Origin: Dehalococcoidia bacterium
GTDB lineage: Bacteria > Chloroflexota > Dehalococcoidia > SM23-28-2 > RBG-16-64-32
DNA: 64,000 nt
Assembly: GCA_040877915.1 (NCBI GenBank)
Contig: JBBDNA010000006.1
Coordinates: forward strand, 128,524 to 192,523
Direction of reading: 5' to 3'
The notes below the pieces were generated by a model that worked only from the letters and a program-made list of their open reading frames with translations, was not told the DNA's origin and ran no database searches. Of the stretch, positions 20,600 through 29,047 are shown piece after piece. Positions within the stretch are counted from its first letter, which is position 1; each line of letters starts with the position of its first letter. Position numbers and translations under genes: made by a program.

Positions 20600-21387
20600 T
20601 TCGCCGCCCCCTCCGCGAACAGCGGCAGGTCTCGCATGGCCGATATCGCCTCGATCGTGTAGTCCGGTTGCGGTCCGCCCTCGACCTCTGGCGGGTCGGC
20701 CGAAGCCTCCACCGGCTCGTCCAGGGGCGGCCGGCGCCAGATCGTCGTCATTCCCAGCGCCCTGGCGCCCTCGACGTCGGCGCGGACGTTATCGCCGACC
20801 ATCGCCGTCGCGGCCGGGTCCAGCGACATGTCGGCCAGCGCCCGCTCGTAGATCTTCGGGTGCGGCTTCATATATCCAACGTCGCAGGAAAGCACGACCG
20901 TCTCGAACAGCTCCGCGAGGCCCAGTTCCTCCATCTCTTCGTGGAAGCGGGGGCCGCCGTAGCCGCGGTTGGTCACCGAACCCAGCCGGAAACCGCGCGA
21001 CTTCAGCCAGCGCAGCGTGTCCAGCACGTCCGGGAACAGTGTCCGGCCCAGGAACTTGCCGCCCAGGTTCCACGCCTCCCACAGCTCCTCGCCCTGCTCC
21101 GGCGTCAGGTCCAGCCCATGCTGCGCCGCCACGCGACGGCACATCTGCGGGTAGCCGGGGTCCACACAGTCGCCGTGGAACGCCCTCGACGTCTCATCCT
21201 GCACGGCCAACCGTATGTCACGGCCCAAAAAGCGGCGCTCGTTCGTCACCTCTTCGCCCCAGCGCTCAAGCAGCCGCGAGAGGCGCGAGACGGTAGCGTT
21301 GCGGATGTCTGTGACCGGGGGCATACTGGGGAAATGCCACAGCGTGTCGCCCAGGTCAAACAAGACGGCCGTTATGTCTATGGTCAT
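20596..21387 (-). CDS. HAD-superfamily hydrolase
   Basis: LFDLGDTL motif I, SVTN, KPHP, MVGDN..ADV.GA. Confidence 0.9.
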   Translation of the reverse strand: MTIDITAVLFDLGDTLWHFPSMPPVTDIRNATVSRLSRLLERWGEEVTNERRFLGRDIRLAVQDETSRAFHGDCVDPGYPQMCRRVAAQHGLDLTPEQGEELWEAWNLGGKFLGRTLFPDVLDTLRWLKSRGFRLGSVTNRGYGGPRFHEEMEELGLAELFETVVLSCDVGYMKPHPKIYERALADMSLDPAATAMVGDNVRADVEGARALGMTTIWRRPPLDEPVEASADPPEVEGGPQPDYTIEAISAMRDLPLFAEGAAK

Positions 21388-21791
21388 AGCTCTGCCGGAT
21401 CGAACCTTTCGATCTCCGGGACAGCATCGAAGCCGCGGTCGGCGCTGACTATGCCCTCCAGCCCCGCTTCAATCACGACCGCCGCGTGGAGAGCGTCTCG
21501 AGTCTGCAGCCTTGGATGTTGACGAAGCGTTTCGGCGGCAGCGACAACCATTGGCACAGTTATCCCCAGGGGGTCTGGGAACAGCGCCAGGGTGTGGTTC
21601 AGCACCCCCACACCAAGCTCGACGCGACCGCGCCTCTGGTAGTAGTGGAGTATCTCTTGCAGGACTTCCACGTCTGTGTTCGCCTCGATGGCCCCTTCCC
21701 GAACCAGACGCAACAGGCGCAGGCTCGGTTCCTTATACGGATGCTCATCTCCAGCCGCGTAGATCAGAACGTTGGCGTCAACCAGCTTCAA
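21384..21791 (-). CDS. vapC: PIN-domain toxin (VapC family)
   Basis: LVDANVLIY, VLQEILH, RDALHAA, SADRGFD: conserved acidic PIN residues. Confidence 0.9.
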   Translation of the reverse strand: MKLVDANVLIYAAGDEHPYKEPSLRLLRLVREGAIEANTDVEVLQEILHYYQRRGRVELGVGVLNHTLALFPDPLGITVPMVVAAAETLRQHPRLQTRDALHAAVVIEAGLEGIVSADRGFDAVPEIERFDPAEL

Positions 21792-22044
21792 GGCTTTTCT
21801 CTATACCCTCGTCGATCGCGCGCAGAATATCCTCCTTGATCTCCTCCGGCGAGCCCACCGGGCCGCGTTGTGCGGCGAACCACTCCAGCGCTTCCCCGCG
21901 CTCTTGATCCGTCGGCTGCAAGACGTACTTTGCCACCGCCTCCCGGACCATTGAGCCCACCGACCGCTTCTTCGTCTGGGCCAGCTCTTCCAGCCGCCGG
22001 TACTCCGACGCATCGAACAGGATTTCCACTCGTTTCTTCAGCAT
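21778..22044 (-). CDS. Ribbon-helix-helix (CopG-like) antitoxin
   Basis: KRVEILFD..EYRRLEELA..KKRSVGSMVREAV; overlaps the downstream PIN toxin by 14 bp. Confidence 0.8.
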   Translation of the reverse strand: MLKKRVEILFDASEYRRLEELAQTKKRSVGSMVREAVAKYVLQPTDQERGEALEWFAAQRGPVGSPEEIKEDILRAIDEGIEKSLEAG

Positions 22045-22074: not shown

Positions 22075-23292
22075 CTACCCACGCTCCGCTGCTCCGTCAA
22101 CCCCGCCCTGCGCCTGGGACTGCACCCGCACGGGCAAGCCCCAGATGTGGATGAACCCCTCGGCGGCCTTGCTGTCGAACTGGTCCTCCCTGTCGTACGT
22201 GGCCAGCGAGAAGTCATACAGGCTTCGCGGCGACTTCCGCCCCACGACCGTGGCCGTGCCCTTGTGCAGCTTCACGCGCACCGTTCCAGTCACGTGCCTC
22301 TGCGTCGACTGCACGTAGGCCGCCAGGTCCTGGTGGTGGGCCGAGAACCACAGCCCGTCGTACACCAGCTGGGCGAACTCCCGCGCCACGCCCGCCTTGT
22401 GCCGCCGCTGCTCCTTCGATAGCGTCAGCTGCTCCAGCGCCTCGTGCGCGGTCAGAAGCGTCACCGCCGCCGGCGCCTCGTATACCTCCCGCGACTTTAT
22501 ACCCACCAGCCGGTCCTCTACCATGTCGATCCGGCCGACCCCGTGCCCGCCCGCCAGCTCGTTCAGCCGCTCGACCAGCTGCACCGGCGCCAGCGAGCGG
22601 CCGTCCAGGCTCGTCGGCAGCCCCTGCTGGAAATCGATCTCCACGTATCCGGCCTCGTCCGGCGCGTCCGCCGGGGCGGCCGTCCACTCGTACACCTCGG
22701 ACGGCGGCTCCTGCCAGGGGTCCTCGAGAACCCCGCACTCGATGGCGCGGCCCCACAGGTTCTCGTCGATCGAATAGGGGCTGTCCCGGGTCACCGGCAC
22801 CGGTATCGAGTGCTCCTGGGCGTAGGCGATCTCCGCCTCGCGGTCCATGTCCCAGTCGCGCACCGGCGCCACGATGCGCAGGTCCGGCGCCAGCGCCTGC
22901 ACCGACACGTCGATGCGCACCTGGTCGTTCCCCTTGCCGGTGCAGCCGTGGCCGATCGCCGTCGCTCCTTCGGCCCGCGCGACTTCGACCAGCTCCCGCG
23001 CGATCAGCGGCCGCGATAGCGCGGTGGCCAACGGGTACTGCCCCTGGTAGCGGGCGCCCGCGGCCAGCGCCGGGAAGGCGAAGTGCCGCACGAACGTCTC
23101 CTGCGCCTCGCGCCACACAAACTTCGACGCGCCGGCAGCCAGCGCCCGCGATTGCGCCTCCTCGCGGTCGCGCTGCATGCCGACATCGACGGTCAGCGCC
23201 ACGACGTCGTAGCCGCGCTCCTCCTGGAGCCAGCGGACGGCGACGGACGTGTCCAGCCCGCCGGAGTAGGCCAGCACGACCTTCTCAGCCAT
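22075..23292 (-). CDS. argG: Argininosuccinate synthase
   Basis: VVLAYSGGLDTS, YPLATALSRPLI, HGCTGKGNDQVR, YSIDENLWGR, GIKSREVYEAP. Confidence 0.97.
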   Translation of the reverse strand: MAEKVVLAYSGGLDTSVAVRWLQEERGYDVVALTVDVGMQRDREEAQSRALAAGASKFVWREAQETFVRHFAFPALAAGARYQGQYPLATALSRPLIARELVEVARAEGATAIGHGCTGKGNDQVRIDVSVQALAPDLRIVAPVRDWDMDREAEIAYAQEHSIPVPVTRDSPYSIDENLWGRAIECGVLEDPWQEPPSEVYEWTAAPADAPDEAGYVEIDFQQGLPTSLDGRSLAPVQLVERLNELAGGHGVGRIDMVEDRLVGIKSREVYEAPAAVTLLTAHEALEQLTLSKEQRRHKAGVAREFAQLVYDGLWFSAHHQDLAAYVQSTQRHVTGTVRVKLHKGTATVVGRKSPRSLYDFSLATYDREDQFDSKAAEGFIHIWGLPVRVQSQAQGGVDGAAERG

Positions 23293-23301
23293 GGGCCGTC
23301 C

Positions 23302-24504
23302 TCACTTCGAGCCGCCGGCCTCGATGCGGCCCAGGACGTGGTCGACGATGTCTACCGCCCGGTCCAGGTCTTCCTCGCTGATCGTCAGCGGCGGCATCAG
23401 CCGCAGCGCGTTCGGCTTCACGTTATTCGCCAGCAGCCCCTCCGAGAGGCAGAGCTGCACCGCCTCCTCCGCCGCGTCCCGGTCCAGCTCGATGGCCCAC
23501 AGCAACCCCTTTCCGCGCGTCCCCTTGACCATCGGGTGCTTGTCGGCCAGCGACCGCAGCCGCCGCGCCAGGTGCTCGCCCTTGCGCGCGACCTGCGCCG
23601 GCAGGTCCGTATCGACCATGTGCTTGAGCACTGTGTAGCCGACGTGCGTGGCCAGCGGATTGCCGCCGAAGGTCGTTCCGTGCTCGCCGAGCGACAGCGC
23701 CGAGCAGTGGTCCTTGACCAGGAAGGCGCCGATGGGGAAGCCACCGCCCAGCCCCTTGGCCACCGCCATCACGTCCACCTCGATCCCCCACAGCTCGTGC
23801 GCGAACAGCGCCCCCGCCCGACCCATCCCCGACTGCACCTCGTCGGCGATGAGCAGGATCCCGGCCTCGTCGCACCAGGCGCGAACGGCGGGCAAGTAAT
23901 CGTCGTCGGGGACGTTTACGCCGCCCTCGCCCTGTATCGGCTCCAGCATCACGGCGACCGTCTTCGGCGTCGTCGCCTTCTTGATCGCCTCGATGTCGTT
24001 GAACGGGACGCGGACAAACCCCTCGAGCAGGGGCGTGAACGGCGCGCGGTAGCGCTCGGTCGCAGTCGCCGTCAGCGCACCCATCGTGCGGCCGTGGAAC
24101 GCGTCCTCGGCGACGATGATCTCGTAGGCGCCGTCGCGGTTCTCCTTGCCCCACTTGCGCGCGACCTTGATGCACCCCTCGATGGCCTCGGCGCCGCTGT
24201 TGCAGAAGTACGCCTTGTCCATCCCCGTGCTCTCGCACAGTAGCCGCGCCAGCTTCAGCTGAGCGGGGATGTAGAAGTAATTCGACACGTGCATCAGCGT
24301 CGCGGCCTGCTCCTGCACGGCCTTCACGACCTCCGGGTGGCAGTGGCCCAGGCTCACCGACGCTATCCCGGCCACGCAGTCGAGGTACTCGCGGCCGTCC
24401 TCGTCCCAGACGCGGCTGCCCTCGCCACGAACGAGCGTGACGGGAATCCGCTTCCCCACACCGAGGACGTACTTGCGGTCGATTTCCGCCCAGTTCTCGC
24501 TCAT
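23302..24504 (-). CDS. argD: Acetylornithine aminotransferase
   Basis: GIASVSLGH, FCNSGAEA, FHGRTMGAL, EPIQGEGG, DEVQSG, AKGLGGG; inside the arg cluster. Confidence 0.92.
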   Translation of the reverse strand: MSENWAEIDRKYVLGVGKRIPVTLVRGEGSRVWDEDGREYLDCVAGIASVSLGHCHPEVVKAVQEQAATLMHVSNYFYIPAQLKLARLLCESTGMDKAYFCNSGAEAIEGCIKVARKWGKENRDGAYEIIVAEDAFHGRTMGALTATATERYRAPFTPLLEGFVRVPFNDIEAIKKATTPKTVAVMLEPIQGEGGVNVPDDDYLPAVRAWCDEAGILLIADEVQSGMGRAGALFAHELWGIEVDVMAVAKGLGGGFPIGAFLVKDHCSALSLGEHGTTFGGNPLATHVGYTVLKHMVDTDLPAQVARKGEHLARRLRSLADKHPMVKGTRGKGLLWAIELDRDAAEEAVQLCLSEGLLANNVKPNALRLMPPLTISEEDLDRAVDIVDHVLGRIEAGGSK

Positions 24505-24514
24505 CTTGCTCCGT

Positions 24515-25288
24515 TCATCCTACCACTGTACCCTTGCCCCGTTCGATGGCCGCCAGCAGCGCCCCCTCGGCCCGGCCGTCGGTGATAACGCTGCCGCAAC
24601 CGGCCCCGGCCGCCCGCAGACAAGCCTCCACCTTCGGGAGCATGCCGCCCTGTATGACGCCCGACCCCGTCAGCTCTTCCGCCCTCTCAGCCGAGAGCGC
24701 CTGGAGCGTCTCGCCGTCCTCGCCGCGGATGCCCGGCACGTCCGTGAGGAACACCAGCGAGCTCGCCCGCAGCGCCGCCGCGATGGCCCCTGCCGCCGTG
24801 TCCGCGTTCACGTTCAGCAGCTGCCCCGTGGGCGACTCCTCCTCCCACTCCAGCGCAATCGGCGCCACCACCGGCACGATCCCGTCCTCCAGCAGGTCCA
24901 GCAGCGGCCGCGTGTCCACGTCCGCCACCTCGCCGACGTACCCGAGCGTTTCGTCCGCCCGCCAGGCCTTGAGCAGGCCGCCGTCGGCGCCGGAAACGCC
25001 CGCCGCCCGCCCGCCCACGGCCGCCAGCGCCGCCACTAGCTGCTTGTTGACCAGCCCCGCCAGCACGGCGACGACGACCTCCAGCGTCGCCGCGTCCGTC
25101 ACCCGCAGCCCCCGCTCGAACCGCGCCTCCACGCCGAGCCGCGCCAGCCAATCGCTGATCAGCGCCCCGCCGCCGTGCACGACGACGGGCCGCAGCCCCC
25201 GCCGCTGCAGCGCCACGACGTCCAGCAGCGTGGTGTCGTGCGCCCCCAGCGTGGAGCCCCCGATCTTCGCGACTACGATCTGGCTCAT
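24515..25288 (-). CDS. argB: Acetylglutamate kinase
   Basis: VAKIGGS, VVHGGG, GLRVTD, NVNADTAA, GGMLPK. Confidence 0.95.
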   Translation of the reverse strand: MSQIVVAKIGGSTLGAHDTTLLDVVALQRRGLRPVVVHGGGALISDWLARLGVEARFERGLRVTDAATLEVVVAVLAGLVNKQLVAALAAVGGRAAGVSGADGGLLKAWRADETLGYVGEVADVDTRPLLDLLEDGIVPVVAPIALEWEEESPTGQLLNVNADTAAGAIAAALRASSLVFLTDVPGIRGEDGETLQALSAERAEELTGSGVIQGGMLPKVEACLRAAGAGCGSVITDGRAEGALLAAIERGKGTVVG

Positions 25289-25293
25289 TCCCC

Positions 25294-25321
25294 TGTCCAC
25301 TGTCCACTATCCACTATCCAC
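25294..25321. repeat. Heptamer tandem repeat (TGTCCAC)2(TATCCAC)2
   Basis: Four 7-nt units fill most of the argJ-argB gap. Confidence 0.8.
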
Positions 25322-25329
25322 TCGCCCGA

Positions 25330-26547
25330 TCACGTCGTGTACAGGCTGTTGAGCCGTACGTACTCTTCCGTGATGTCCGAGCCCCAGGCGGTGGCGGTGT
25401 GCTCGCCGAGGCCCAGGTCCACCAGGAAGCGCACCTCCCGCGCCTCGAAGTAGGGCTTGGCCGCGCCCTTCGCCAGCTCCTGCGGAGCGCCGTGCTTCAT
25501 CAGGCACAGGGCGTGACCCTCCGCGTCGATGAGCGACAGGTCGGTCCTGGCCTGCTCCACCCGGCAGCTGGAGTTGCCGACCGCCGCCAGCACGCGGCCC
25601 CAGTTGGGGTCGTGGCCGTAAACCGCCGTCTTCACCGCCATCGACCGCACGATCTCGCGGGCGGCCGCGCGCGCCCCCTCGACGGAGGGCGCTCCGACGA
25701 CGTTCGCCACGATGACCTTGGTGGCGCCCTCGGCGTCGGCGACGATGGACTTGGCCAGCTCCGTGCAAACGTGCGTCAGCGCCGAGGCGAACGCCGGCGC
25801 CAGCGGATGCTTCTCGTCGATCTCGTCGCCACCGGCGACACCGTTGGCCAGCGCCACCACCGTATCGTTCGTGCTGGTGTCGCTGTCCACGTCGATCATG
25901 TTGAAGGACACGGCCACGGCCTCCTTCAACGCGCTCGAGAGGAACGGCTGCGATACCGGGGCGTCGGTGGTCAGGAAGGCCAGCATCGTCGCCATGTTGG
26001 GGTGGATCATCCCCGCCCCCTTGCAGGCCCCGCCCAGCGTGTAATCGCCAAACCGCACCGCGAGCTGCTTGGGCCGCGTGTCCGTGGTCATGATCCCCTG
26101 CGCGAACGACAGCCCGGCCCCGTCCGAAAGCTCGATCGCCTCCACGGCGTGGCGCATGCGCTCCATGTTCAGGTACGTCCCGATCACCCCCGTCGACGCG
26201 ACGACGACGTCGTGGGGATCGATGCCCAGCCTGGCCGCCGCCAGTCGCGCCATCTCCACGGCGTCGTCCATCCCCCGCTCGCCAGTCGCCGCGTTGGCGC
26301 AGCCGCTGTTGGCCAGGACGGCCTGCGCCCTCCCGTCCGACAGGTGCTTGCGGGTGATAACAATCGGCGCCGCCACGACGCTGCACTGGGTATACATCGC
26401 CGCCGCCGCGCAGGGCACGTCCGAGTACAGCATCGCCACGTCCAGCTTGTCCCAGTCGTCCCGCATCTTCGCGCGCACCGCCCCGGCGACGAACCCCTTA
26501 GCGCTGGTCACGCCGCCGCCTTCGATGGTCATTATCTTGTCGCTCAT
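25330..26547 (-). CDS. argJ: Ornithine acetyltransferase / amino-acid acetyltransferase ArgJ
   Basis: NSGCANAATG, ASTGVIG, IMTTDT, KGAGMIHPNMATML, DTSTND, DAEGATK, DPNWGR. Confidence 0.96.
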   Translation of the reverse strand: MSDKIMTIEGGGVTSAKGFVAGAVRAKMRDDWDKLDVAMLYSDVPCAAAAMYTQCSVVAAPIVITRKHLSDGRAQAVLANSGCANAATGERGMDDAVEMARLAAARLGIDPHDVVVASTGVIGTYLNMERMRHAVEAIELSDGAGLSFAQGIMTTDTRPKQLAVRFGDYTLGGACKGAGMIHPNMATMLAFLTTDAPVSQPFLSSALKEAVAVSFNMIDVDSDTSTNDTVVALANGVAGGDEIDEKHPLAPAFASALTHVCTELAKSIVADAEGATKVIVANVVGAPSVEGARAAAREIVRSMAVKTAVYGHDPNWGRVLAAVGNSSCRVEQARTDLSLIDAEGHALCLMKHGAPQELAKGAAKPYFEAREVRFLVDLGLGEHTATAWGSDITEEYVRLNSLYTT

Positions 26548-26578
26548 TGCCGCTTCCGAACCCACTTTCCGAACCCTC

Positions 26579-27619
26579 CTAGGGATAGACACCCGGGACA
26601 TCGAGGCCGGTCGTTTCCGGCAGCCCCAGCATCGCGTTCATGTTCTGCAGCGCCTGACCGGCCGCGCCTTTCACCAGGTTGTCGAGGACGCTGACAACAA
26701 CCAGGCGCTCCGTACGCTCGTCCACCGTCGGGTGCACCAGGCAGACGTTGCTGCCGGAGACATGCTTCGTGGCCGGCGACGAACCGGCGACCCGCACGAA
26801 CGGCTCGCCGCGGTAGAAGTCGCGGTACAGCTCGAGGGCGTCGTCGCCGCTTCGTACCGTTCCCGCCAGGAGCGGCGCGTAGCAGGTGGAGAGGATGCCC
26901 CGCGACATCGGCACCAGGTGCGGCGTGAACGTGACCTTCGGTCGCGGCGGCTCCGGCGCCTCCGCCTTCGCCCACATCGCCGACAGCTCTTGCACGATCT
27001 CCGGCAGGTGCCGGTGCCCCGACAGCGCGTACGCCGAGACGCTCTCGTTGGCCTCCGCGAAGTGGTAGGCCAGCCCCAGGCCGCGGCCCGCGCCCGACAG
27101 GCCGGACTTGGAGTCGATTATGACGTCCGTACCGATGATCCCGGCCTTGGCCGCCGGGGCCAGGGCCAGCAGCGCGCTCTCCGGGAAGCAACCCGGGTTG
27201 GCGATGAGCCGCGACGCCTTCACCGCCTCGCGATTGAGCTCGGTCAGGCCGTACGCCGCCGAGGGCAGCAGGTCCGGGGCCGGGTGCTCGCCGCCGTACC
27301 ACTCGGCGTACTCGGCGGCGTCCCGCAGACGGAAGTCCGCGCTTATGTCGACCACCGGCAGACCGGCGCGGGCCAGGGGCGCGACGGCCTCAGCGCTGGC
27401 GGCGTGGGGCAACGCTGAGAACGCGAAGTCGACGTCGCCCAGCTCCTCGCCGATGGTCAGCTCGTAGGCGGCGAGGTGGGGGAAGACGTCGGCCAGCGGT
27501 TGGCCAGCGGCGCTGCGGCCGGTGACGCTGGTCAGTCGCGCTTCAGGGTGGGCATAGAGCAGCCGCGCCAGCTCCGCGCCGGCGTAGCCCGTCACGTTGA
27601 TGATGCCTACCCTGACCAT
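26579..27619 (-). CDS. argC: N-acetyl-gamma-glutamyl-phosphate reductase
   Basis: GIINVTGYAG, DISADFRL, ANPGCF, SGLSGAGR, HRHLPEI, DNLVKGAAGQA. Confidence 0.96.
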   Translation of the reverse strand: MVRVGIINVTGYAGAELARLLYAHPEARLTSVTGRSAAGQPLADVFPHLAAYELTIGEELGDVDFAFSALPHAASAEAVAPLARAGLPVVDISADFRLRDAAEYAEWYGGEHPAPDLLPSAAYGLTELNREAVKASRLIANPGCFPESALLALAPAAKAGIIGTDVIIDSKSGLSGAGRGLGLAYHFAEANESVSAYALSGHRHLPEIVQELSAMWAKAEAPEPPRPKVTFTPHLVPMSRGILSTCYAPLLAGTVRSGDDALELYRDFYRGEPFVRVAGSSPATKHVSGSNVCLVHPTVDERTERLVVVSVLDNLVKGAAGQALQNMNAMLGLPETTGLDVPGVYP

Positions 27620-27637
27620 TTCGCTCCTCCGAGAACT

Positions 27638-27667
27638 AAAACGCCCCACCGCTGATAGCGGTGGGGC
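27638..27667 (-). terminator. Intrinsic terminator in the argC leader (attenuator)
   Basis: Minus strand GCCCCACCGCT-ATC-AGCGGTGGGGC-GTTTTAGTT: perfect 11-bp stem plus U-tract, about 20 nt before the argC start. Confidence 0.85.
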
Positions 27668-27697
27668 TTCCGGCTCTGTGCTGCTTGTTTTCGGTTG

Positions 27698-27781
27698 CTA
27701 ACGACTGTCCGCGGGCACAGGGAACCCACCGCCGAAGGGACGTCGCGGTCGCGGCTGGGCCTCGATGTGCAGCGCGGTCAT
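27698..27781 (-). CDS. Putative arg operon leader peptide MTALHIEAQPRPRRPFGGGFPVPADSR
   Basis: 84-nt ORF read by hand; Arg codons CGA,CGA,CGT at codons 11,13,14 and CGT at 27; ATG lies 8 nt after a TATCCT -10. Confidence 0.7.
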   Translation of the reverse strand: MTALHIEAQPRPRRPFGGGFPVPADSR

Positions 27782-27789
27782 GATGGCTC

Positions 27790-27819
27790 AGGATACGGGC
27801 TGGCGGGCGTTGGTGTCAA
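27790..27819 (-). promoter_or_regulatory. Sigma70-type promoter of the arg operon
   Basis: Minus strand TTGACA (27819-14), N18, TATCCT (27795-90). Confidence 0.7.
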
Positions 27820-28034
27820 GGCTTCCGCCGCTCGTCATCCGAGAGGCGGGTCCGGATATGCCCTCCGATCCTGCCGCCGTACAGTACGAGGACGGCCAGC
27901 GAGACCGGCGCCAGCCAGCCGAGGTTCAGCCAGACCGCGTTGCCGGTCGCTATCGACATCGCGACGCCGGTCAGCAGCGAAGCGGGCACCAGCAGCAGCA
28001 ACGCGAGCACGAGGAGCTCTCGCAGCAGCGTCAC
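27816..28034 (-). CDS. Small two-TM membrane protein, unknown function
   Basis: 72 aa, two hydrophobic stretches, basic C-terminus; GTG overlaps the patatin stop. Confidence 0.6.
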   Translation of the reverse strand: MTLLRELLVLALLLLVPASLLTGVAMSIATGNAVWLNLGWLAPVSLAVLVLYGGRIGGHIRTRLSDDERRKP

Positions 28035-29047
28035 CGCCTGGCCTCCCGTAGGGCGTCCGCCGTCAGCCCCTGGCCCAGGGAGTTGCGATACTCGGCCGGA
28101 TCGAACCTCGCGAAGAACGCCGTCGCCGCGTCCCGGCCCCGCTTCAGCAGCTCCCGTACTCGCTCCTCGCTCATGCCGAACTCGGTCGTCCGGTAGCCGG
28201 ACACGTTCATGGCAACCGTGCGACCGGCGCCCATGCGGTCCAGTAGCACGTCGTTGAGGCCGCCCATTGACGTGTCCACGATGCGTCGCGCCAGCTGGGC
28301 GACCCCCAGCCGGCGGTAAGCGAACTTCCTCTGCTCGTCCAGCAGGAAGCCTATCGTCGGCCAGCGCGCCTTTCGCGCGGAGTCGAACAGCCAGATCGGG
28401 AAGTTGCTCAGGAAGCCGCCGTCCACGATGACGGTCGGTGGGCTGGTCGTGGACAGGACCACGGGCTCGAAGTAGAAGGGGATGGCCATGCTCATCCGGA
28501 TGCCCAGGCCGATTCGCACCTCGTCCGGGTCCAGCCCCAGGTCTCTCAGCCCCTGCGGGATGATGGTCGCCTTCCTGTGGGTAACGTCGCTGGCCACGAA
28601 CTGAAGCCGGTACTCGGGGTGACCGTCCCGAACGTCCTCCGGGCGCGCTCTCACGTCGCCGAACCTCTGGATGGGGCGCGGGCCCCCGGCCAGCAGCGTC
28701 TCCATCACCTCGAGGAAGTAGTCGCCGCTGTACATCCCGAGGTGCGCGAACAGGTTCACCGCCGGCGATACGAAAGGGATGCCACCCAGCGACCGCCTTC
28801 GCGGCAGGTCCGAGAGCTTGACCGGCCCGATCACGCCGTCAATCCCCTTACCCGTCAGCAAGTCGCCGATCTGGGCCGGTTGATAGCCGGCGGCCAGCAG
28901 GGCAGCCGTGATAGCGCCCGCGGAAGTGCCGGCCAGGCTCTCCCACTGCGTCACGTACTCCTGGGCCACCGCCAGCGCTCCCACCAGGGCGATGCCCTTG
29001 GCGCCGCCCCCCTCGAACACGCCGTCGGCGGAACCGTAGTAGGACAC
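28031..29047 (-). CDS. Patatin-like phospholipase
   Basis: FEGGGAKG oxyanion motif, GTSAG nucleophile, VDGG catalytic Asp. Confidence 0.9.
   Translation of the reverse strand: MSYYGSADGVFEGGGAKGIALVGALAVAQEYVTQWESLAGTSAGAITAALLAAGYQPAQIGDLLTGKGIDGVIGPVKLSDLPRRRSLGGIPFVSPAVNLFAHLGMYSGDYFLEVMETLLAGGPRPIQRFGDVRARPEDVRDGHPEYRLQFVASDVTHRKATIIPQGLRDLGLDPDEVRIGLGIRMSMAIPFYFEPVVLSTTSPPTVIVDGGFLSNFPIWLFDSARKARWPTIGFLLDEQRKFAYRRLGVAQLARRIVDTSMGGLNDVLLDRMGAGRTVAMNVSGYRTTEFGMSEERVRELLKRGRDAATAFFARFDPAEYRNSLGQGLTADALREARR

Follow-up and report, generated by a model that had tools for sequence, protein, structure and literature searches.

A probable arginine-codon attenuator in the leader of the argCJBDG operon in an order of Dehalococcoidia without detectable ArgR

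Results

Organization of the argCJBDG leader

The window analyzed here, a stretch of 64,000 nucleotides from the genome of a Dehalococcoidia bacterium (contig JBBDNA010000006.1, positions 128,524 to 192,523), carries the arginine biosynthesis genes argC, argJ, argB, argD and argG in one operon on the minus strand. Ahead of argC lies a leader with a predicted promoter, a short open reading frame (ORF) and an intrinsic terminator. The features of the locus, in window coordinates, are as follows.

27814..27819, minus strand: −35 hexamer TTGACA, from a consensus scan; TTGAC[AT] stands at the same distance in 45/45 related leaders.
27790..27795, minus strand: −10 hexamer TATCCT, separated from the −35 by an 18-nt spacer; TAnnnT is present in every relative.
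27698..27781, minus strand: leader ORF MTALHIEAQPRPRRPFGGGFPVPADSR, 27 codons plus TAG (ATG 27781-27779, TAG 27700-27698).
27740..27751, minus strand: putative regulatory Arg-codon cluster CGA-CCG-CGA-CGT (R11, R13, R14), kept as R-R-x-R with synonymous changes.
27751..27763, minus strand: segment 1, GAGGCCCAGCCGC, predicted anti-antiterminator partner of segment 2 in the minimum free energy (MFE) structure.
27714..27733, minus strand: segment 2, the G-rich arm GCGGTGGGTTCC (27732-27721) plus CTGTGC, predicted to supply the antiterminator with its 5′ strand; 45/45 leaders have a G-run.
27658..27681, minus strand: segment 3, GCACAG...GGAAGCCCCACCGC (27671-27658), predicted from duplex calculation and folding as the 3′ strand of the antiterminator and, at the same time, the 5′ arm of the terminator.
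27631..27667, minus strand: intrinsic terminator with an interrupted U-tract, GTTTTAGTTCTC, stem 27667-27657 with 27653-27643, from consensus scan and folding.
26579..27630, minus strand: Shine–Dalgarno sequence (SD) and argC, the latter matching TIGR01850 with E = 1e-115.
22075..26601, minus strand: argJ, argB, argD and argG, the remainder of the operon, with NCBIfam matches above the curated cut-offs.

Sequence reading and a consensus scan agreed base for base with the first-pass annotation, which had already placed the promoter, the ATG, the 27-aa ORF, the Arg codons, the terminator and the antiterminator complementarity at these minus-strand coordinates. One detail is corrected here, namely the start of argC, which is the ATG at 27619-27617, with the SD GGAGGAG (27630-27624) ahead of it. 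The hexamer pair at 27819-27790 is the only promoter-like site in 27000-28600, a region in which shuffled sequences lead one to expect 0.1. The leader ATG follows the −10 hexamer by 8 nt, in the context CATCATG and without an SD, so the ORF is predicted to be leaderless or to have a 5′ UTR of at most 3 nt. It lies 78 nt upstream of argC, and its Arg codons are CGA (27751-49), CGA (27745-43), CGT (27742-40) and CGT (27703-01).

The terminator, GCCCCACCGCT-ATC-AGCGGTGGGGC (27667-27643), is a hairpin of 11 bp, nine of them G-C pairs, with the loop ATC and a predicted energy of −24.3 kcal/mol, and it is followed by GTTTTAGTTC. Its U-tract is interrupted (GUUUUAGUU), which counts against reading the leader as an attenuator. 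The G-rich stretch at 27732-27721 within the ORF is complementary to 27671-27658, and the duplex, extended by CTGTGC/GCACAG, reaches −28.5 kcal/mol. A strict scan of the entire genome (2.14 Mb, both strands) for a promoter followed 5-10 nt later by a start codon, an ORF of 8-45 aa and a perfect GC-rich hairpin with a T-rich tail returned the argCJBDG leader as its sole match.

The flanks of the locus also contain small ORFs. Upstream of the leader, a previously unlisted 72-aa hydrophobic ORF (VTLLRELLVLALLLLVPASLLTG..., 27816-28034, minus strand) begins with a GTG that overlaps the stop codon of a 486-aa gene (GTGA), for which only weak patatin-like matches were obtained. The TGA of this 72-aa ORF (27818-27816) sits within the −35 hexamer of the leader, so that transcripts reading through from upstream would meet the terminator of the putative attenuator. 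At the other end, directly downstream of argG (21384-22044, minus strand), an 88-aa ORF and a 135-aa ORF, the latter with a weak VapC/PIN match below the cut-off, may represent a VapBC toxin–antitoxin pair.

Conservation and distribution of the leader

Regions upstream of argC were taken from 57 related genomes for comparison, and 46 of them are organized in the same way. They have TTGAC[AT] as −35 and TAnnnT as −10, and the ORF opens 35-40 nt downstream of the −35, its start codon mostly lying within CATCATG. The leader ORFs of 45 relatives have 21-44 codons and contain an R-R-x-R cluster and a G-run (GGTGGGG or GGGGGG), followed by a stop codon and a terminator of the form GCCCCACC...GGTGGGGC plus T's. 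The terminator is conserved in 40/40 aligned leaders, and here as in all the comparisons below the counts overstate independence, since the leaders are phylogenetically related.

A covariance model, R1, was built from 40 leaders and gave one strong match per genome in 51/65 species genomes of this Dehalococcoidia order. The layout that had been described ahead of argCJBDG at this single locus, with an Arg-codon upstream ORF (uORF), a G-rich arm and a terminator, is therefore a property of most of the order. The leader stands directly upstream of argC wherever this could be checked, although the upstream neighbors differ, and each of five strong R1 matches outside the extraction set is directly upstream of an ArgC N-terminus. 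No genome searched with R1 has a second copy of the leader. Among the 401 genomes sampled across the class, the 336 that belong to other orders yielded nothing credible; the weak R1 matches outside the order are terminator-like hairpins. Within the order, one further weak match, in G063 (37.9 bits), covers the 3′ end of an unrelated gene and a terminator and is a false positive. Arg-rich small ORFs (‘RRMR’) upstream of argC in more distant Dehalococcoidia were likewise rejected as leaders: they are the 3′ end of the upstream gene read in another frame, a gene judged from its Cys motifs to encode endonuclease III.

Within the order, genus g22 and G038, nine genomes in all, possess argC without the leader and without ArgR, indicating that the clade can manage without the leader. 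In G038 (locus L031), a TATACT box is followed directly by CATCATG, at which argC itself opens, so that argC looks leaderless. In genus g22 (loci L033, L035, L037, L038, L040, L043 and L046), a conserved TGTGTATACTCTAGCCATCC stands ahead of a short, SD-bearing 5′ UTR. In another genome (G013, C1:35276-36529), a 64%-complete assembly of three contigs, the leader ORF and argC are both frameshifted; given that argC is also split, the frameshift in the leader is most likely an indel error of the assembly and not biology.

Alternative folds of the leader RNA

The MFE structure of the full-length leader consists of a 1:2 hairpin and the terminator. The 1:2 hairpin is long and imperfect; in it, the G-run (27732-27722) is paired with the C-rich stretch 27763-27751, and the Arg codons are placed at and just beyond the 3′ edge of that stretch. 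Folding predicts that the relatives share this ground state of 1:2 plus 3:4. In some relatives the Arg codons themselves make up segment 1, as with CGACGACCGCGACCC in genus g8, and in several lineages the Arg cluster lies partly in the loop rather than in the stem.

The predicted switch was analyzed in 45 leaders by folding transcripts that ended before the 3′ arm of the terminator, with the ribosome footprint masked, as the first-pass annotation had recommended. When the mask was set at the first Arg codon, 42/45 leaders paired the G-run with the 5′ arm of the terminator. With the ribosome at the last Arg codon, where the G-run is partly covered, antiterminator pairing was obtained in 32/45, and in the free RNA the G-run was paired upstream in 35/45.

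As originally formulated, the switch had two parts: stalling at the Arg codons would free the antiterminator arm, and translation up to the TAG would cover it. The folding of the masked transcripts (42/45) agrees with the first part; the second needs to be revised. The TAG in this genome is 29 nt past the start of the G-run, and a ribosome on it would cover approximately 27715-27686, not the arm at 27732-27721, which is instead predicted to be sequestered by 27763-27751. The first two Arg codons are located 15-22 nt upstream of the G-run, a spacing at which a stalled ribosome could melt 1:2 while segment 2 stays free. Family f2 alone has its stop codon adjacent to the G-run (for example, GGG GGG CTT TAG in G042), so that the ribosome itself may cover the G-run there.

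The complementarity between the ORF and segment 3 is greater than that of dinucleotide-shuffled ORFs (mean z −2.46), and in 18/25 lineages at most 5% of the shuffles reach the observed value. The comparison of related leaders, from which a conserved uORF and covarying helices had been anticipated, gave a divided answer: the Arg-codon uORF is conserved, in strict frame and with synonymous Arg changes, but covariation is weak. The stem core of the terminator (GCCCCACC/GGTGGGGC) is nearly invariant in 40 leaders, and consequently there is no covariation at this site. This invariance is understandable, since the 5′ arm must be complementary to two G-runs, and one of these specifies Gly-Gly as well. 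When cognate and non-cognate duplexes were compared, the 2:3 helix as a whole gave p = 0.011, its extension p = 0.075 and the 1:2 helix p = 0.052; as GC-rich sequences pair promiscuously, these values are suggestive of covariation, not decisive. The helices thus display conserved complementarity with almost no compensatory covariation, and the structural part of the proposed model is founded on that complementarity and on geometry, not on compensatory change.

The leader ORF as a coding sequence

From the manner in which its sequence varies, we infer that the leader ORF is translated. In 40/40 aligned leaders a conserved CGA anchor shares the reading frame of the promoter-proximal start, and its offsets from that start, 33, 36, 39, 42, 48, 54 and 57 nt, are all multiples of 3, so that indels have come in threes only. 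At the Arg positions CGA, CGT, CGC, CGG and AGG interchange, all of these changes being synonymous. In contrast, across the 45 leaders the residues between the Arg positions swap freely (P, A, L, W, V) and the N-termini are unrelated; the peptide shows no conservation in the leader comparison beyond Arg and the Gly residues that the G-run specifies. Arg makes up 22% of leader residues versus 7.7% in the long ORFs of the genome, and the leader described here has three Arg codons within four codons.

The choice among the Arg codons is equally distinctive. The use of CGA and CGT in this leader had been contrasted with CGC and CGG in the neighboring genes, and the genomic counts bear this out: CGC and CGG together account for 77% of Arg codons, CGA for 7.4% and CGT for 7.8%. 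Within the cluster, CGA represents 111 of the 171 Arg codons over all leaders and 62 of the 102 in 25 lineage representatives (61-65%), as compared with 7.4% genome-wide and 14-19% in the remainder of the same leaders; this bias recurs in every family, the counts not being phylogenetically independent. A terminal Arg codon just before the stop is found in about 30 of the 45 leaders (most of family f1, together with G040 and G058), in the form CGT TAG here (27701-27703) and CGA TAG, CGC TAG or CGC TGA elsewhere.

These patterns bear on two other explanations of the leader. The first is a terminator coupled to translation but without specificity for arginine, which would tune or insulate the arg operon, for instance by halting transcripts that run on from the upstream gene, or report general translation capacity, the Arg codons being a by-product of a C/G-rich pairing segment. 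Insulation is made plausible by the overlap of the −35 with the stop codon of an upstream ORF on the same strand; Arg, Pro, Ala and Gly are the residues to be expected from pairing segments rich in C and G, and the weakness of the covariation also fits. However, the Arg positions are kept through synonymous changes that include AGG, the third-position A of CGA is of no help in pairing with the G-run, and the Arg cluster lies partly in a loop, not a stem, in several lineages. Moreover, the element is found ahead of the arginine operon only, in a clade without ArgR. We therefore regard this explanation as unlikely.

The second is that the nascent peptide arrests the ribosome upon sensing free arginine, in the manner of the fungal arginine attenuator peptide or TnaC/SpeFL, and that the position of the stall decides termination. 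Amino-acid-sensing arrest peptides exist, and the leaders encode a conserved basic, Pro-rich core (RRPRP, RRARP) followed by GG; the first-pass annotation had raised this alternative for the PRPRRP of the present leader. Nevertheless, within that core the Arg positions alone are conserved, with Pro, Ala, Leu, Trp and Val interchanging and the flanks diverging completely, while the GG is accounted for by the G-run at the RNA level. The strong synonymous choice of CGA fits the sensing of a tRNA and not a peptide signal. In addition, a stall in the cluster would free the antiterminator, so that expression would rise when arginine is abundant, opposite to what feedback requires. Peptide arrest is thus not favored, and we consider it very improbable.

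The tRNA-Arg set

Aragorn identified tRNA-Arg genes with the anticodons UCG, GCG, CCG, UCU and CCU in this genome, the assembly of which is 71.5% complete. The genes for tRNA-Arg(GCG) and tRNA-Arg(UCG) are located outside the window, at C7:9592-9667 and C6:350697-350773 (loci L151-L210 in relatives), and each of these two tRNAs is conserved in 30/30 relatives inspected. A call of tRNA-Arg(ACG) in the same genome corresponds to an 84-nt non-canonical structure and is a false positive; aragorn found no genuine tRNA-Arg(ACG) in this 71.5%-complete assembly. Most bacteria employ an inosine-modified tRNA-Arg(ACG), and the decoding set of this order, with tRNA-Arg(GCG) and tRNA-Arg(UCG), looks unusual. 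With tRNA-Arg(UCG) conserved and no genuine ACG tRNA found, CGA probably has a single dedicated, low-demand reader, tRNA-Arg(UCG).

ArgR and known RNA regulators

The window had been noted to lack argR, and this observation extends to the order: the ArgR C-terminal domain (PF02863) was found in 0/59 of its genomes searched, while the same search was positive in eight control genomes and in G059. On the genome sequences searched, ArgR control of the leader-bearing order is excluded. G059 belongs to another order (loci L056 and L138) and has argR (Arg_repressor_C, E = 3.9e-20) about 2 kb downstream of the end of argC, without the leader; conventional ArgR control looks to be in place in this neighboring order. 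The region upstream of argC in G059 contains TGCATnnnnATGCA-like palindromes that resemble ARG boxes.

The earlier statement that no clear T-box is present also held. Neither a T-box nor any other Rfam family matched 27300-28200, even at E values up to 10, and no family reached its gathering score anywhere in the window. This result weighs on a third explanation, in which the terminator is governed by an RNA switch that binds a protein or a ligand, be it a riboswitch, a T-box-like tRNA sensor or the target of an RNA-binding attenuation protein, and the ORF has no part in the control. A terminator with a competing helix is indeed also the expression platform of riboswitches and T-boxes. Yet in the leader alignment the conserved features are limited to the Arg codons, the G-run and the terminator, with no conserved structured aptamer visible, and the strict conservation of frame across indels would be unexpected for a non-coding element, so that an RNA switch of this kind is highly improbable. 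Finally, that this unit of about 150 nt, complete with promoter, ORF and terminator, is an independent small-protein or sRNA gene lying upstream of argC by chance is scarcely credible, in view of its position always immediately upstream of argC despite differing upstream neighbors, the poor conservation of its peptide outside Arg, and the lack of an evident second argC promoter, by sequence reading, in the 23-nt gap between the terminator and the SD.

Discussion

Our analyses suggest that the leader is, in all likelihood, a ribosome-mediated (leader-peptide) transcription attenuator that couples transcription of argCJBDG to the supply of charged tRNA-Arg. In the mechanism we propose, transcription would start at the leader ATG or 3 nt before it, so that a ribosome could load directly behind RNA polymerase. 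With Arg-tRNA in good supply, the ribosome would pass the Arg cluster and depart. Segment 1 (27763-27751) could then pair with the G-rich segment 2 (27732-27721), leaving segments 3 and 4 to form the terminator (27667-27643), and transcription would end before argC; leader RNA that is not translated would likewise terminate. The sequestration of the G-run by segment 1 would thus explain termination under arginine sufficiency. When charged tRNA-Arg is scarce, the ribosome would stall at the CGA/CGA/CGT cluster (27751-27740), the CGA codons presumably being decoded by tRNA-Arg(UCG), a minor isoacceptor that is conserved. In this position the ribosome is expected to cover segment 1 and to leave segment 2 exposed; segment 2 may then pair with segment 3, which would prevent formation of the terminator and allow the operon to be transcribed.

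A more far-reaching version of this model can be put forward only tentatively. According to it, the leader would be the sole arginine-responsive control of arginine biosynthesis in this ArgR-less order, and would sense the charging of tRNA-Arg(UCG) through CGA, which would have a single dedicated reader, CGU and CGC being read in this clade by tRNA-Arg(GCG) in place of the usual inosine-bearing tRNA-Arg(ACG). The leaderless start would, in addition, take over from the RNA polymerase pause site of enterobacterial attenuators in synchronizing ribosome and polymerase.

Arginine is the textbook pathway under a protein repressor, ArgR, rather than under attenuation. Within the literature covered, which leaves most subscription-journal papers out of scope, no report came to light of bacterial arginine biosynthesis under a leader-peptide attenuator of the terminator/antiterminator type, and a large survey of attenuators does not mention arginine (PMC2965389). 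In an order of environmentally widespread, uncultured Dehalococcoidia that lacks ArgR, a well-formed Arg-codon attenuator appears to be present instead. If confirmed, this would extend classical attenuation to arginine and to the Chloroflexota and provide a natural case of a leaderless attenuator. It would also be an example of synonymous-codon choice tuned to one tRNA isoacceptor, with CGA at 7% in the genome and about 63% in the sensor. The covariance model would then serve annotators in recognizing a regulatory element and a small ORF that are overlooked by gene callers.

The closest parallels in design are the classical leader-peptide attenuators of the enterobacterial amino-acid operons, trpL, hisL, leuL, thrL, pheL and ilvL/ivbL. 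Like these, the leader has a short ORF rich in codons for the end product, four segments predicted to form 1:2, 2:3 and 3:4 alternatives, and an intrinsic terminator ahead of the first structural gene, and termination would be the default whether the leader is translated or untranslated. The preference for a rare synonymous codon in the sensor recalls the CUA codons of leuL. Unlike the enterobacterial attenuators, the present one would respond to arginine, its ORF has no SD and opens no more than 3 nt from the predicted transcription start, its Arg codons are interspersed (R-R-x-R) instead of forming a long run, and it occurs in an uncultured order of Dehalococcoidia, with no sequence or Rfam relationship to them.

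Leaderless sensory ORFs have been described in mycobacteria, where they are short and poly-cysteine (Canestrari et al., bioRxiv 10.1101/834739). As in those systems, the probably leaderless ORF here is the first cistron of a biosynthetic operon, and stalling at cognate codons would remodel the downstream RNA; the differences are that the codons are for Arg and not Cys, and that the output is a strong intrinsic terminator. Arg codons are sensed by the uORFs orf34 of Salmonella speF (PMC6386406) and rbfL of S. aureus (PMC13009471), in which, as we propose here, pausing at (rare) Arg codons of a short uORF reports arginine limitation. However, the target of orf34 is a polyamine gene, on which it works by way of Rho, RNase G and unfolding of the RBS, and that of rbfL is a biofilm regulator whose RBS becomes occluded; neither of them governs arginine biosynthesis or employs a terminator/antiterminator device.

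With ArgR/AhrC and their ARG boxes, the leader shares the target, an arg biosynthetic operon, and the expected repression at high arginine, but ArgR/AhrC is a protein that acts on DNA and takes free arginine as its signal. In fungi, the arginine attenuator peptide (arg-2/CPA1 uORF) is also encoded by a uORF ahead of an arginine-pathway gene and responds to arginine. It is, however, a eukaryotic system in which the nascent peptide senses free arginine and blocks scanning and translation, and its sequence is conserved, unlike that of the leader peptide described here. The argCJBDG leader thus most probably represents an arginine-specific, leaderless and CGA-biased form of classical attenuation, in a clade without ArgR.
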